A stretch of 64,000 nt of DNA from a virus (lineage: Duplodnaviria; Caudoviricetes), in IMG/VR virus record IMGVR_UViG_3300022217_000228, positions 1 through 64,000 of that record. The stretch is one strand, 5' to 3'. Positions 4,582 to 60,995 of the stretch are shown one piece after another (position 1 is the stretch's first letter; each line of letters begins with the position of its first letter). Below the pieces are notes generated by a model. That model saw only the letters and a list, made by a program, of their open reading frames with translations. It searched no databases and was not told the origin of the DNA. A program made the position numbers and the translations under genes.

Positions 4582-4614
4582 ATATATTTCACATAATCAG
4601 TAGTTGGTGTCAAG
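4582..4614 (+). other. attI-like cassette entry site A
   Basis: ATATATTTCACA-9 nt-GTTGGTGTCAAG directly before the first + strand cassette; same 12-mer at 49297-49308. Confidence 0.55.
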
Positions 4615-4647
4615 TTTTTGAACTTTTAATTTGGAGGAAATTTTACT

Positions 4648-4956
4648 ATGTGGAGATTATTGGAAGTCGGTGAAGTTCGTCAGAGAGATGATGAATATAT
4701 ACTCAATGCGAATCCGTGGGAACCTATTGGGTCAATCATCGGAATACCGTTTAAAGATGGTGACAACCCGGTGCGCCGTAAAATTTCGGATAATTCGGAG
4801 GTTCAAAAACCAACCGCTAACATCGACTATACGGCGGTGCTTAAAAAGGAACTGAATCAATGGATTAATTCAGCGCCATCAGTTGTTGCCGAGAAAGATA
4901 TTCATCAATTTGCAGCGCACCTCAATGCCGTGATAAACAAACGGCACTGCACATAG
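4648..4956 (+). CDS. Cassette-borne hypothetical protein, translated through its attC
   Basis: GGAGG RBS; PTANIDYTAV is encoded by the hairpin left arm. Confidence 0.7.
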   Translation: MWRLLEVGEVRQRDDEYILNANPWEPIGSIIGIPFKDGDNPVRRKISDNSEVQKPTANIDYTAVLKKELNQWINSAPSVVAEKDIHQFAAHLNAVINKRHCT

Positions 4957-4973
4957 TCGAGAACCGTTGTGCG
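4814..4973 (+). other. attC-like site
   Basis: CCGCTAAC-ATCGACTATACGGCGGTGC ... GCACTGCACATAGTCGA-GAACC-GTTGTGCG. Confidence 0.8.
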
Positions 4974-5004
4974 AAATGTTTTTTTGAGAGTATAGGAGTT
5001 TGCC

Positions 5005-5235
5005 ATGACACTAAAAGAAGCATTTGATTTTTTGCAACAGAGGCATCGTGTTGTAGAAACCGAAAGCGATACCGAATCAAAATCATGGCAAGCTCTGAAG
5101 TCAGCGGTATTCGCTCAACAGCACTTAACAGGCGATAAAAACGAGCCGGAGGACATTACGCCCTGTGAACATGAGTGGAGGGCGGCGTGTACTCAGGCGA
5201 TTTGTAGGAAGTGTGGAGAAATATCAGATGATTAA
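5005..5235 (+). CDS. Cassette-borne hypothetical protein with Cys-rich C-terminus inside the attC loop
   Basis: AGGAG RBS; CEHEW...CRKCGE lies in the loop. Confidence 0.7.
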   Translation: MTLKEAFDFLQQRHRVVETESDTESKSWQALKSAVFAQQHLTGDKNEPEDITPCEHEWRAACTQAICRKCGEISDD

Positions 5236-5273
5236 CGACGGCGTAACGTCTTTTATCGCCGAACCGTTGGCCA
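5121..5273 (+). other. attC-like site
   Basis: CACTTAAC-AGGCGATAAAAACG ... CGTCTTTTATCGCC-GAACC-GTTGGCCA; same family as 63827-63992. Confidence 0.8.
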
Positions 5274-45800: not shown

Positions 45801-47957
45801 CTATCCCGGTATTGCAGGAGATTCATTTCCAAGTCTGTTTATATTCTGAACTCGCTGTTCTCTTTCCGTAGGCATTGATTGTTCTTGTGCAGGTCCGACG
45901 CTCATTGCTGCAGGTGTTGCTTGTTCTGGAATACTTGGCTGTTGTGCCCCTCCCTGCATTTTGGCCTGCATATTCTGCATCATTCCTTGAAGCTGCATCT
46001 GCATCGATTTCGCTTCCATTCCCTGTGCTTTTAATCCCTCGATTTGGGTGAACAGCGACAGTATATCACGCATTTCTTTAAGTGTTCGCATGCGCTCAAT
46101 CTTCAACTGCTCTTCCGGTGTTCTTTCTATGGTACTGAGAAGATCGTATGTGAGCATCTGGATTTCCTCTTTAAACAATTCCGGATGAGCAGATAGCATC
46201 TTGGTTGTATCGAATAGTTCAAGCCTTTTCTCCATGCGTTTTGTCGGAGAAGATTTTGAAAGCCGAACAACAACTCTTGCGCGTGGAAGATCGCTTATTG
46301 AGTTTATATAAACCTTTTCCCTGCCTCCATTTTGATTCGTTCTAAATGCAGGAACATTGAATTCAACCTCTCCGCTACCGCCGGCCATAGGGATTTTACG
46401 ATACAAATCTTTGTACGAGATTTGAGCTTGGTTGTACCATGCTTCTGCCTTATCCATAAGGAATTGCTGCCAAGCACCGTATAGGCGTAGTGTTCCGAGC
46501 TTTGTGATTTCATGGCGCAATTCAAGAAGAATGCCAGATTGATCCCTTTCGGCAGCCCCTTCGAGTGCAGGAGTAACAGGCGTTACTCTATCAAGCAGGT
46601 CGATTATTTCATTAACCTGTCTAAAAATGTGCTCCGGAACTTGTCCAACTGGAAATAATGCAGCTACATTATCAGGAGGGCCATCAACGGCATGAACGTA
46701 ATCAGGACGGGTTTTATTCTGCATTATTTTTTGAACACCCTGTTTGCCGCCAACTTTGTTTTGATCAACAAAGGTTGCTCCTGAAGCGGCAGCAGCAATA
46801 ACGTCATCCATCTTTGATTGTCGATAATTAAGTGTTCTGTTTAAATCGAGGCCGTATTCGAATACGCCTTTTCTTATACCAAACATTTTGTTGGAAGAGA
46901 ATTCGAATAGACCTATCATCCCAGGTTGTGTAGGATGTTTTCCTCTGACGAAAACCAAATCAGGTGCAATTCCGGTTAGATCAGGTGATATAATACCATA
47001 ATAAAGAATATTGTCTTCATACGGAAATTCTCTTATATCTGACCAGGTTATACCCGTTTTTTCCTTAAAATCACGTACTTGATCTTCCGTTACTTTTAAT
47101 GGAAATGCAAACCACTCGCCAGTTTGCATTTTTGCATGTAGGCGAGTGGTTCTTAGCTTTTCAAGCCAACGGTATTCGGTAACGAGATAGCGTGATCCAC
47201 TTTTTGTCGGCAGGTTTTCCCATGCCCGTACATCATCGCCTTCATTGGCGTAATCATAGCCTATCGCAAAATCACGTTCGGCGAGTTTTCTTACACTATC
47301 ATCGCGGCAATCAAGCTCTTCTATCATCATTTCCGGAGTGAGGTATCCGTCTATCATGGCCTTACGCCAGTTTCGTATCTCGTTGTCCTGCCAAAAAGGA
47401 TCCGAAAGAACGGTTCCATCCGTGCAGTGCTTGAAACTTATTGCACCTGTTCGTCTGATATCATAATCAAGACACATCATTTGTACACCGGAATGTAGTA
47501 ACCCCGACATATTTGACTGATTATCTGCTGTTTCATACTTGTACTGATCTTTATCGGCGAAATACCAATGCTTTATAGAGTCTATGAGCGTGTTTTCGTC
47601 TATATCCAATGCTTTAAAATCGAAATCGAAGCGTTCTGACATCAATGAGCCACTTAGGGTTTCCATTTTTTGTTTTAATATATTTATACTTGTTGGGTGA
47701 CGATCGGCGTTTAGTAGTTGGTTGCGTTCTGTTTCAGGCCACATTCCTCCGTTAATATCCATGAATGCCTGCATTGCATCATAATATCGTTCTCTTGAAT
47801 CTTGATGACATGCAAGCCAGCGTGTGTGGAGATCTTCGACATGCCGAACGAATTCCCCATCAGATGAGCGCATCCGCATGGAGGTTTTAGTGTTTATGTT
47901 AGCTTTTTCTATCGGGAATTCTATGTCGGAAGTGAGATGTAGTGGATACTTGTTCAT
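45801..47957 (-). CDS. Portal protein (P22/podovirus-like)
   Basis: 718 aa; FMDINGGMW, SINILKQK, Q-rich C-terminal extension; first gene of the head module. Confidence 0.8.
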   Translation of the reverse strand: MNKYPLHLTSDIEFPIEKANINTKTSMRMRSSDGEFVRHVEDLHTRWLACHQDSRERYYDAMQAFMDINGGMWPETERNQLLNADRHPTSINILKQKMETLSGSLMSERFDFDFKALDIDENTLIDSIKHWYFADKDQYKYETADNQSNMSGLLHSGVQMMCLDYDIRRTGAISFKHCTDGTVLSDPFWQDNEIRNWRKAMIDGYLTPEMMIEELDCRDDSVRKLAERDFAIGYDYANEGDDVRAWENLPTKSGSRYLVTEYRWLEKLRTTRLHAKMQTGEWFAFPLKVTEDQVRDFKEKTGITWSDIREFPYEDNILYYGIISPDLTGIAPDLVFVRGKHPTQPGMIGLFEFSSNKMFGIRKGVFEYGLDLNRTLNYRQSKMDDVIAAAASGATFVDQNKVGGKQGVQKIMQNKTRPDYVHAVDGPPDNVAALFPVGQVPEHIFRQVNEIIDLLDRVTPVTPALEGAAERDQSGILLELRHEITKLGTLRLYGAWQQFLMDKAEAWYNQAQISYKDLYRKIPMAGGSGEVEFNVPAFRTNQNGGREKVYINSISDLPRARVVVRLSKSSPTKRMEKRLELFDTTKMLSAHPELFKEEIQMLTYDLLSTIERTPEEQLKIERMRTLKEMRDILSLFTQIEGLKAQGMEAKSMQMQLQGMMQNMQAKMQGGAQQPSIPEQATPAAMSVGPAQEQSMPTEREQRVQNINRLGNESPAIPG

Positions 47958-48328: not shown

Positions 48329-48994
48329 CTAGGTGCCGGAAACAATTCTCCAGGTGCGTTGATTATCCCATTTTTGGATAATGCAAGCTACCTGTTTTCT
48401 GCTGCTTCCGCCTTGGGGGATTGGCCAACATGGGTATTCCCAATCCAATACGTGGCCGAATTTTTCGGGGATTTGCACTTTAATCTTTTTGAAGTCTACC
48501 CACATTAATTTATTAACGTAATCAGACGGGATGCCGAGGGCTATCGCTTCGGTTTCATCGTTATATCCCCATCTGTTTGAATCGAATTTTGATTCTCTTA
48601 CCCATCTGCCGCTTTTGGACCACCACCAGAATCCTTGAAAATTGAAACCTATCCAGTGACAGAACTTTGCTCTCTTTGCCCCGCGCCTTAGTGTAAACCA
48701 TGTGGCCATATCAGTATCTTTTCTTCTCGCTACTTTCTCGCGGGAGAAAAACATGTTCTTTTCCCTGAGGTATTCTATATAATCATCAAGTTGTTTCTTG
48801 GTGATACCATCAGCATGGATGCACATATCGATGTCGTTGTCATGGCCTATAAAATCGTTTTCGCGTATGATACCGAGAAGAAGGCCGAAATTAACGAAGA
48901 GTTTATCTTTTATACCAGCTTTTTCTGCGCATTCGTAGCATATGGACAGATCCTCTGTAGCGTACAATTTTCTCTGATAATCAAAAAAAGCCAT
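48329..48994 (-). CDS. LicD-family nucleotidyltransferase-fold protein, paralog 1
   Basis: FVNFGLLLGIIRENDFIGHDNDIDM; KVQIPE...LDWEY. Confidence 0.85.
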   Translation of the reverse strand: MAFFDYQRKLYATEDLSICYECAEKAGIKDKLFVNFGLLLGIIRENDFIGHDNDIDMCIHADGITKKQLDDYIEYLREKNMFFSREKVARRKDTDMATWFTLRRGAKRAKFCHWIGFNFQGFWWWSKSGRWVRESKFDSNRWGYNDETEAIALGIPSDYVNKLMWVDFKKIKVQIPEKFGHVLDWEYPCWPIPQGGSSRKQVACIIQKWDNQRTWRIVSGT

Positions 48995-49005
48995 TAATGT
49001 CCTTT

Positions 49006-49136
49006 TTCACAACGGTCCGCGAATATGTGCAGTGCTGGAGCCATCCGGCTTATTTACGCGCCTTTGGGCTGGTGCCGAAACCCGCATAATCCAACTTAGT
49101 AGCACAACCAGCATTGCATATATTCGCTGTTGTATG
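49006..49136 (-). other. attC-like site of a solitary cassette
   Basis: CATACAAC-AGCGAATATATGCAATGCTGG ... CCAGCACTGCACATATTCGC-GGACC-GTTGTGAA. Confidence 0.85.
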
Positions 49137-49283
49137 TTGAAGGAGATTTCCTCCATAGTGTAAAAGCGATATGTTAATTATTTTTCCCGGACGGAACGGC
49201 CTTATCCGATGTTCCGTATATTTGATAATTAACTCTCGGATGCGATATCGCATTACAACCATAAAAGAAATCTCCTTTTGCAT
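49050..49283 (-). CDS. Cassette-borne hypothetical protein (likely start 49262)
   Basis: AAGGAG RBS just after the entry core; HTTANI is encoded by the hairpin arm. Confidence 0.6.
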   Translation of the reverse strand: MQKEISFMVVMRYRIRELIIKYTEHRIRPFRPGKIINISLLHYGGNLLQHTTANICNAGCATKLDYAGFGTSPKARK

Positions 49284-49308
49284 ACAACTATATTAGTGTG
49301 AAATATAT
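49277..49308 (-). other. attI-like cassette entry site B
   Basis: ATATATTTCACA-8 nt-GTTGTATGCAAA. Confidence 0.55.
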
Positions 49309-49347
49309 TATTCAAGTAATGCACTACATAATTAGAACAATGTCATT

Positions 49348-50049
49348 CTATTTCAAGCCTTTACAAGTCTTAATTTTTTTCACCCACGGAGTCATACTCT
49401 GTCCTTTATAATACTCCCTGAACCGCCACGATGGCGAATACCAGGTGTCAAGCAGGTGTCCGATTGCAAAAGGGAGTCTCATGGTTAATCCCGATTCAGA
49501 TCCGAATACTGGCATTTTCCAGGTACCTAACTCAGTTAGCATGAGTTCGCGTCCAGGCTTACCAATCTTTCTTTCCTTCTCTATTACTTCCTGAGATGGG
49601 AGAAGCCATTCTTTCTTCACCCCTTTGAACACATATTCCGGTGGAACCTTCTGTCCGGTTTTCTTTGTATCATATGTGTGATACAGCAACTCTCCTACTG
49701 GGACCCAGAAGTACACGTCTATAGTTGGGGTGCCTTTTAGGAAATCCTCACCGGGTTTAAGGTGCACGTTAAAACACTTGCCGTTAATGTCATTAACACA
49801 CATCTTTTTGGCCTTGTATCCATGGCCTGTGAATGAGTTGATAAGCTTGTTTTCATCACAAGCGCCATAAATGACACCGATATCAATATCATAATTGAGG
49901 GAGAAAGTTTTATCACAAATGTATTCGAGCATTCCGCCAAAGCAATGGCACCACCATACTTTATGGCCCATATTATCTTCCATCATATCCATTATGTTTG
50001 TAACACTATCAAGAACCATTTTGGCGAGTTCAACTTTTTCATCAACCAT
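49348..50049 (-). CDS. LicD-like nucleotidyltransferase-fold protein, paralog 2
   Basis: CFGGMLE...YDIDIGV, IDVYF, MRLP...LLDTWY. Confidence 0.7.
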   Translation of the reverse strand: MVDEKVELAKMVLDSVTNIMDMMEDNMGHKVWWCHCFGGMLEYICDKTFSLNYDIDIGVIYGACDENKLINSFTGHGYKAKKMCVNDINGKCFNVHLKPGEDFLKGTPTIDVYFWVPVGELLYHTYDTKKTGQKVPPEYVFKGVKKEWLLPSQEVIEKERKIGKPGRELMLTELGTWKMPVFGSESGLTMRLPFAIGHLLDTWYSPSWRFREYYKGQSMTPWVKKIKTCKGLK

Positions 50050-60128: not shown

Positions 60129-60449
60129 TCATTTTATATTCCTTTTTATTCTAACTTGTCTTTCGGCGGCGTCTTCCTGTCTTCGGGCAGGTTTTTTGCT
60201 TACAACGGGTTGCCGCACTCGCCAGCAGTACCCCACCGGAATAGTTTGCATTACCGGCAGCCTCGCACTTCTCGAACGTAGCGATCTCGTCCCAGAGCTT
60301 GAGGTATTGCTGGCTGCGGCTGTTGTACGATGTAAAGTGAGCTTCCTTAGTGTAAGCACAATCCAGCTTCGGAAGAAGTCTAATTTCACTTTTTGAAAAG
60401 TGCTACGACTTGAAAGTCCACTGTTTGGTTTAATTGTGCTTATTAACAT
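60129..60449 (-). CDS. Cassette ORF reading through the whole of S7
   Basis: RTTAAA in the usual frame; coding status uncertain. Confidence 0.4.
   Translation of the reverse strand: MLISTIKPNSGLSSRSTFQKVKLDFFRSWIVLTLRKLTLHRTTAAASNTSSSGTRSLRSRSARLPVMQTIPVGYCWRVRQPVVSKKPARRQEDAAERQVRIKRNIK
60198..60329 (-). other. attC-like site S7
   Basis: GCTTACAAC..GCCGCACTCGCCAGCAGTACC ... GGTATTGCTGGCTGCGGC-T-GTTGTACG. Confidence 0.88.
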
Positions 60450-60465
60450 GAAAGCTCACTTTATT

Positions 60466-60609
60466 TTGTACAACGGCTTCAGGCACCCGCCTGCCGTGGC
60501 CGATAGAAATCGTCTGCATCTCGAATACAATGATTTGCACCTAAAAGGCAACACTGCCCCTTTTTATTATCACAATCGTCAGGACATGGCAGGCTGCCTG
60601 GGTTAGAAG
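60466..60609 (-). other. attC-like site S8
   Basis: TTGTACAAC..CAGGCACCCGCCTGCCGTG ... CATGGCAGGCTGCCTG-G-GTTAGAAG. Confidence 0.88.
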
Positions 60610-60802
60610 CTGTGGGCTGGGTTCCGCTGCCTTTTGAAATTTTACGAAGTAACGTACCACCAAACATTAACGGATAAACACCTACAGCTTGCCCGGCATA
60701 TAAAAAACTACACTTCCCAGGCTCCTTCAACTCTATTACAACCACATCACCGACTTTAGAGTATCCGTTACCAGCTTCTCTATATCCCGGTATATTAATC
60801 AT
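60479..60802 (-). CDS. Cassette gene with Cys-rich tail in the attC loop (ORF track starts it at 60931)
   Basis: GGAGG RBS before MINIPG; CPDDC...CC...HC. Confidence 0.7.
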   Translation of the reverse strand: MINIPGYREAGNGYSKVGDVVVIELKEPGKCSFLYAGQAVGVYPLMFGGTLLRKISKGSGTQPTASNPGSLPCPDDCDNKKGQCCLLGANHCIRDADDFYRPRQAGA

Positions 60803-60838
60803 AGTAAAATTTCCTCCAATAAATTTAAGAGTCGCATT

Positions 60839-60995
60839 GCTTCTAACGTTTGCGAAACGTGCGCCGTTACTTGAAACACGGTTTATTAGCATAACAATGT
60901 AGATTTTTATTTTTAATAGTACATTCATCATAATAACAACACGGCCTTGCGCTCCATTCTTCGTATTCTAATGGCGCACTTTCTGCTGTTGGATG
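60839..60995 (-). other. attC-like site S9 (same family as S1)
   Basis: GCTTCTAAC-GTTTGCGAAACGTGCGCC ... GGCGCACTTTCTGCT-GTTGGATG. Confidence 0.88.

Follow-up and report, generated by a model that had tools for sequence, protein, structure and literature searches.

Is the 275-bp unit that lies alone between two genes upstream of this phage's portal gene a member of the phage's own family of integron-like cassettes, and how did it come to lie there? The window that we analysed (64,000 nucleotides) covers bases 1-64000 of an IMG/VR virus record that is 73,346 bp long and was estimated to be 96% complete; genome-wide scans refer to the full record. The minus-strand genes around the unit run in the order two glycosyltransferases, a 95-aa gene, a 233-aa gene, a 353-bp gap, a 221-aa gene, a 92-aa gene and a P22-type portal (Table 1). 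The initial annotation described the genes on either side of the gap as two LicD-like paralogs. A Pfam LicD match was detected in only one of the two, the 221-aa protein, where it is below threshold, while the 233-aa protein has no Pfam hit and similarity between the two proteins is marginal (BLASTP E = 0.018; 48329-50049 (-)); 'LicD paralogs' is therefore a loose label. Homologues of the 233-aa gene (63-68% identical) adjoin the 221-aa gene in related phages.

Table 1. Features of the solo cassette, its surroundings and the array used for comparison
Feature	Position	Strand	Remarks
P22-type portal	45801-47957	-	
Downstream flanking gene, 221 aa	48329..48994	-	weakly LicD-like; ATG at 48994
attC-like folded site (hairpin 2)	49006..49137	-	inverse core, 1-nt spacer A, left arm 49127-49108, 69-nt loop, right arm 49038-49019, spacer GGACC, core GTTGTGAA
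28-nt shared stretch	49008..49035	-	shared with 4944-4971 (+) in the site of the first satellite cassette; 0 matches in 100 shuffles
Cassette proper, 275 bp	49013..49287	-	begins with the TT that follows the left crossover, ends with the G of the right crossover
70-aa ORF	49050..49262	-	Shine-Dalgarno AAGGAG 49272-49277; reading frame crosses the inverse core and enters the hairpin site
Hairpin 1, 3' arm	49129..49172	-	ends in the inverse core CATACAAC (49136-49129)
Hairpin 1, 5' arm	49245..49288	-	core GTTGTATG, 3-nt loop CAA, outer stem AAGGAGATTTC, Shine-Dalgarno, start codon
Head motif TATATTTCACAC-TAAT-ATAG	49288..49307	-	ends at the crossover G 49288
59-nt leader, from the stop of the 233-aa gene to the cassette	49289..49347	-	absent from all relatives examined (L026, L027, L028, L029, L006, L007)
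Upstream flanking gene, 233 aa	49348..50049	-	from the ORF list; "LicD-like" in the initial annotation
Two-cassette satellite array	4583..5266	+	comparison array; same head motif

The unit has the boundaries that had been proposed for it. Read on the minus strand, it extends from G/TTGTATG (49288) to G/TTGTGAA (49013), where the slash marks the crossover, and its length from G to G, 275 bp, is inside the size range of the main-array cassettes (261-876 bp). At its left end stands GTTGTATG (49288-49281), whose exact reverse complement CATACAAC gives the reported inverse-core match at 8 of 8 positions. At the right end we found GTTGTGAA (49013-49006), 19 nt ahead of the ATG of the 221-aa gene; the ribosome-binding region of that gene, AAAAAGGA, begins 6 nt past the crossover and is conserved in some relatives. 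The ribosome-binding site and short ORF reported inside the unit are present as well (ATG 49262, TAA 49052-49050, 70 aa). The ORF has its start codon about 27 nt past the left end of the cassette; the inverse core is read in the phase most frequent in the family, and the stop codon falls within the site, ahead of the crossover. This layout is the same in 16 of the 21 tabulated cassettes, the solo one counted. No homologues were detected, the sole match in 5.8 billion proteins being the protein itself, and the predicted product is an orphan. A full HMMER search gave one match, which was rejected as spurious: it is an ORF of a 69-Mb eukaryote chromosome that spans a tandem repeat, five copies of which inflate the score.

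Just before the start of the 221-aa gene lies a well-paired hairpin (hairpin 2), as had been noted. Its 20-nt arms are 90% complementary, with two mismatches that are G-T pairs on the plus strand. An inverse core ending in AAC and a core beginning with GTT flank this imperfect hairpin, as in integron cassettes and their attC sites, and the hairpin site spans 121 nt. All sites of the phage's cassette family follow the same plan (AAC, 0-1 nt, left arm, loop, right arm, 3-5 nt, GTT), and about 12 nt past the GTT are partly conserved across them. The solo site also agrees with the array consensus at the 3' end of the site, namely a right arm, an A/C-rich spacer with CC, and GTTRNN...AA. We re-derived the 18 sites of the main array (57-65 kb), built a weight matrix from these sites alone, and scanned both strands of the genome with it (2 x 73 kb, 146 kb). 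Positions 4966(+), 49013(-) and 5266(+) were among the four best outside the array; 49013 scored 14.5, and the sole unrelated position reaching 14.3 in the 146 kb was 37722(+), whose score falls between those of the three. Arm pairing in the solo site is 11/12 (array range 7.5-11.5), with spacers of 1 and 5 nt, both common values. Its closest relative is the site at 4814-4973, and the arm that the initial annotation had described as common to the two turned out to be longer than claimed, with agreement at 25 of 25 specified positions of a 28-nt pattern. Two differences between the shared arms are mirrored in the opposite arms (T/G with A/C and C/A with G/T), and such compensatory differences argue that the predicted hairpin fold is under selection. 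An exact pattern scan of IMG/VR for the shared right arm returned nothing. The matrix, the arm pairing and the complementarity of the cassette's own ends, described below, identify the 275-bp unit as a genuine single member of the hairpin-site family of the main array, so that it was rightly called a solitary cassette.

In integrons, the bases that follow the crossover G are those of the next cassette, and they match the inverse core of that cassette. Across the cassettes of this phage, own ends matched in the core at 4.19 of 6 variable positions against 2.47 for non-own ends, and in the outer block (positions 13-24) at 6.24 of 12 against 2.98 for others; neither own-end value was reached by any of 20,000 permutations (p<5e-5). 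Inverse cores were assigned by the arm-pairing rule, under which three main-array sites were mis-called; because these three fit the own-end rule by eye, the permutation statistics are conservative. The pairing brings the start of a cassette together with the region before its own inverse core, with complementarity beginning at position 4 after the G, and it comprises a core of 8-9 bp, then an internal loop of 3 nt, rich in A and C, and lastly an outer stem of about 10 bp that has a different sequence in each cassette. The solo cassette has all three parts, with 8/8 in the core (5 of the 6 variable positions), the loop and 11/12 in the outer block, and its pairing goes on to 33/44. Two cassettes of a related phage have the same pattern of core, 3-nt loop and outer stem (outer pairs 10/10 and 9 + 3). 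The 8/8 match reported in the initial annotation is thus exact, yet it is one part of a much longer complementarity between own ends that characterizes the family as a whole. In the solo cassette it forms the base of a 44-nt, 75% inverted repeat (hairpin 1) that had gone unremarked.

These data support the view that the ends of the solo unit bear the mark that opening of a circle at G/TT would leave. The long stem can close next to the core only when the cassette is circular, which leaves a few bases around G/TT as the possible exchange point. Own-end complementarity is in this respect a second, independent trace of a circular intermediate, and one that sets the crossover within a few bases.

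The sequence that the cassette adjoins on its left can be recognized elsewhere in the genome. A motif of about 20 nt, TATATTTCACAC-TAAT-ATAG/TTG, is found, near-copies included, at three places in the 73-kb genome, 4582(+), 49308(-) and 64909(-), and all three copies directly precede a first cassette, that of the satellite array (4582), the solo cassette (49308) and that of the main array (64909). The family form of the head, TATATTTCACA..TAG/TTG, is present ahead of the solo cassette, and the head of a small array in a related phage (TATATCCAGTAG/TT) is similar. As the motif is repeated at all array starts, the solo cassette sits at a dedicated attI-like head and not at a random secondary site. 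The solo head is overlapped by a weak sigma-70-like match (TTGAAT-17-TATAGT, 49315-49287, 9/12). The equivalent hexamers are poor at the other two heads, and since the promoter-like match is not conserved among them, we read the head as a recombination target rather than as a conserved promoter. A scan of IMG/VR with the head motif gave three matches only, chance-like in AT-rich or coding DNA. We also considered the empty site as a palindrome (TTTCACA ... TGTGAAA) and dropped this feature, which the other two heads do not show. With a single cassette at a head of its own, the cassette system reaches beyond one array. A defined and repeated entry sequence can sit inside a late-gene operon, and it offers a short candidate for an attI-like target. 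The head together with the own-end features would aid the recognition of such systems in other phages and the choice of substrates for recombination assays.

We consider it likely that the phage has an integron-like system to which the 275-bp unit belongs as one gene cassette, formerly a small circle that a tyrosine-type recombinase inserted at the attI-like head. The cassette would have existed as a small circle, and a site-specific recombinase, presumably of the tyrosine type, would have crossed over at G/TT between the folded hairpin site of the cassette and the head. The receiving head lies between two putative sugar-modification genes and is one of three, all of them occupied, by 18 cassettes, by two and by a single one. 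The solo cassette would have minimal cargo, a 160-nt hairpin in which the ribosome-binding site and the start codon of the orphan 70-aa ORF lie buried, and with this cargo the circular form would be an almost fully paired rod.

We found no match to a tyrosine recombinase (PF00589), a serine recombinase or a Y1 transposase in the 73-kb genome at E <= 1, although the controls were positive and all PF00589 control genomes were matched. As the phage has no recombinase gene, the enzyme would be supplied by the host or by a co-infecting element, or would have acted in an ancestor. A related phage encodes a 379-aa tyrosine recombinase (L013:15800-17419) that is preceded by an HTH_17 (excisionase-type) gene and lies far from the small array of that phage. 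It looks like an ordinary lysogeny integrase module, and a recombinase with such an excisionase-type partner indicates that the family includes temperate members. No prophage relatives were found in 185,579 species genomes.

A phage without a recombinase gene could also have gained the unit by homologous recombination between short conserved sequences, with no dedicated recombinase, as do the PeSLs, promoter-plus-stem-loop cassettes that shuffle genes in T4-type phages in a recombinase-free manner (PMC2839356, PMC4122927). PeSL mini-circles arise without a dedicated recombinase (PMC2839356), and the two systems are alike in their small orphan phage genes bounded by stem-loops, in having no dedicated recombinase and in circular forms, which for the present unit are proposed. 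Conserved stretches that might provide microhomology are the head motif and the 12 or so nucleotides that follow GTT. However, the exchange point lies within a few bases, with arm pairing up to the spacer before GTT and own-end pairing from position 4. Moreover, PeSLs consist of a conserved promoter and terminator, are conserved in sequence and move by homologous recombination, whereas the present stems are cassette-specific and not terminator-like, and the exchange point is fixed. The hallmark of PeSLs, a conserved sigma-70 promoter with a terminator stem-loop, is not seen here: the promoter-like match is 9/12 and is not conserved at the heads, and no terminator-like site was detected on the gene strand, hairpin 2 having no T run after it. 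A PeSL-like origin is on these grounds quite improbable.

The folding of the locus bears on a further reading, in which the hairpins are local regulatory RNA (a processing site, an attenuator or a translational control element) and resemble the array sites by virtue of a common RNA-level role. The 361-nt intergenic region folds strongly on the transcript strand (z = -8.3 against shuffles), and hairpin 1 (160 nt) buries the Shine-Dalgarno sequence and AUG of the 70-aa ORF. Hairpin 1 also folds slightly better on the sense strand (-59.8 vs -55.8 kcal/mol as RNA), where several of its non-Watson-Crick positions are G-U, and in two further cassettes the ribosome-binding region pairs with the stretch before the inverse core. 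All of this is compatible with a function in RNA. Yet the outer stems are cassette-specific and their register is anchored exactly at G/TT, neither of which an RNA role needs, and hairpin 2 folds better on the non-coding strand. Rfam gave nothing at the gathering threshold for the locus (one meaningless snoRNA match, E = 0.1), the gene strand lacks a terminator-like site, and a head motif common to three array starts is left unexplained by RNA function. We therefore regard a purely RNA-level explanation as unlikely. An influence of the cassette on the expression of the downstream genes, which the initial annotation had raised, is a plausible hypothesis.

Per base, no cassette folded as a circle is lower in energy than the solo one (-0.19 kcal/mol per nt, z about -7 to -8), which is predicted to form an almost fully paired rod. 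The only rival is a 268-bp cassette of the main array (60206-60474 (-)), which is predicted to form a similar rod and has the second most negative value (-0.18 to -0.19 kcal/mol per nt). This 268-bp cassette contains a hairpin of about 150 nt closed by GTTGTAC/GTACAAC, with an attC-like hairpin immediately after it. Beyond the common site ends and one short motif, the two cassettes show no clear sequence similarity. They may code for proteins, act as elements at the RNA level or be passengers with no cargo.

The size of hairpin 1 (160 bp) and its long, imperfect terminal inverted repeats (44 nt) are those of a miniature inverted-repeat transposable element (MITE), which might have landed beside a pre-existing lone hairpin site. 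A MITE would be expected to leave traces that we did not find, as hairpin 1 occurs once in the genome and is without a match in the phage collection, and no target-site duplication is present at its ends (49289/49128). In addition, the start pairs with the inverse core in most cassettes, whose sequences differ, and the cassette at 60474-60206 has the same double-hairpin layout with no clear sequence similarity. A MITE is accordingly a very improbable source of hairpin 1.

A bolder variant of the preferred explanation, which we put forward tentatively and regard as rather doubtful, is that this phage lineage runs a folded-DNA system unlike integrons, with several dedicated entry sites in each genome that a head motif of about 20 nt marks, three-part stems as recombination sites (arm, core, 3-nt loop, outer stem) formed only in the circle, and an enzyme supplied in trans. 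The solo cassette and its 268-bp twin would then be cargo-less, rod-shaped mini-cassettes. If this were true, the two would be selfish passengers of the cassette system, as MITEs are to transposons.

Compared with classical integrons, the present system has the same order of boxes (inverse core, left arm, loop, right arm, core), the G/TT crossover and cassette starts that complement their own inverse core. It differs in that the phage has no intI gene, that the head motif occurs three times, and that ORFs commonly run through the site. The present sites further have asymmetric spacers (1 vs 3-5 nt), and a conserved 3-nt internal loop with an outer stem of about 10 bp beyond the core. In the folded plus strand of hairpin 2, the bulge is uneven, 5 nt against 1 nt on the opposite side, and the 20-bp arm is continuous with two G-T pairs and no bulged base. 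Compared with classical attC sites, with their unpaired central spacer and extrahelical bases, the solo site appears to differ in its asymmetric bulge of 1 vs 5 nt, in an arm that has no obvious extrahelical bases and in an extra outer stem.

The closest published concept to the solo unit is the SALIN, a single attC site lacking an integrase; isolated bacterial cassettes of this kind result from integrase-mediated insertion outside arrays, at loose GWT sites (bioRxiv 10.1101/2022.09.11.507474). Like a SALIN, the solo unit consists of one ORF and one folded AAC...GTT site, stands alone with no integrase nearby, and has G/TT junctions. Unlike a SALIN, it is located in a phage and not in a bacterial chromosome, it lies at a 20-nt motif common to two other heads and not at a loose GWT site, and its site has an extra outer stem, apparently another bulge geometry and no known IntI. 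The repeated specific head motif, the predicted three-part stem and the lack of a known enzyme set this SALIN-like unit apart. Virulent phages also carry attC clusters without an integrase (CALINs), and IntI1 recombined five of six such sites tested (Qi et al. 2023, PMC9892861). Phage CALINs and the present system share phage-borne hairpin recombination sites, the lack of an integrase gene and cassettes in one orientation. The CALIN sites were found by classical attC models, and most of those tested were recombined by IntI1, whereas the present sites are known from sequence only, and the present phage has 18 + 2 + 1 cassettes at three heads.

The nearest genomes that we found have 61-71% protein identity in the region. 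A single-protein query detected no close relatives. The portal and an alignment of the 221-aa gene yielded seven related loci, of which six have both flanking genes (61-68% protein identity) and none has the head motif at the junction. Of the six, two have the genes abutting (3-nt gap or TAATG overlap), a spacer of 90 nt separates them in another two, and the remaining two have a pair of unrelated small genes. In the two spacer-less relatives the flanking genes are probably translationally coupled; in the present phage the 221-aa gene has its own ribosome-binding site. The junction between the flanking genes is thus a hotspot. The right boundary of the variable junction coincides with the right end of the cassette, and the difference on the left takes in the 59-nt leader with the head. 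Since the relatives have no head at the junction, the unit of difference is the head plus the cassette and not the cassette alone. The seventh locus, L025, reaches the end of its contig without a 233-aa gene.

An empty site had been predicted to exist in reads or relatives. An exact pattern scan of IMG/VR for it, TATATTTCACACTAATATAG/TTGTGAAAAAGGACATTAATG, found none. The initial annotation had named two things that would speak against it, an empty site never seen and other boundaries in homologous regions; these were borne out by half, and by genomes that at 61-68% identity are too distant to decide the matter or to fix the ancestral state. No second copy of the solo cassette was found in IMG/VR and the phage collection (megablast/blastn of the locus and of the 300-bp unit) or in protein databases. 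Nor was a circular junction of the cassette, predicted as ...CGCGGACCG/TTGTATGCAAAAGG and also as ...ATATTCGCGGACCG/TTGTATGCAAAAGGAG, found in IMG/VR, the phage collection or protein databases. The same phage is present in two other assemblies that are 100% identical here, over 6.7 and 13.9 kb.

Several smaller features were seen in the other cassettes and in the related loci. The second satellite cassette contains two adjacent AAC boxes (5108-5131 (+), GCTCAAC-A-GCACTTAAC), of which the outer complements the cassette start (9/10) and the inner abuts the arm stem. The cassettes at 4603-4650 (+) and 60800-60847 (-) have a ribosome-binding/start region in common, TTGGAGGAAATTTTACTATG, and in both GAAATTTTAC complements the stretch just before the cassette's own inverse core. 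In the 90-nt spacers of two metagenome relatives (L028:2200-2300 and L029:100-200), CTTACAAC is accompanied by a GC-rich hairpin with TTTG after it, which may be a terminator or what is left of a site. L025 (L025:1-230, IMGVR_UViG_3300022699_000278) begins with a 62-bp repeat in about four tandem copies, has small Cys-rich ORFs upstream of its 221-aa gene homologue, and shows a recurring CAGTCAGGRGGAG...CGGTGG motif. The small array of the related phage (L012-L015, IMGVR_UViG_3300029827_000121, 67480-68945 (+)) has two cassettes of the same site family with clear outer stems. It is located between the portal module and the 221-aa gene homologue, on the opposite strand, and is followed by a tRNA-like sequence (about 69130-69230).
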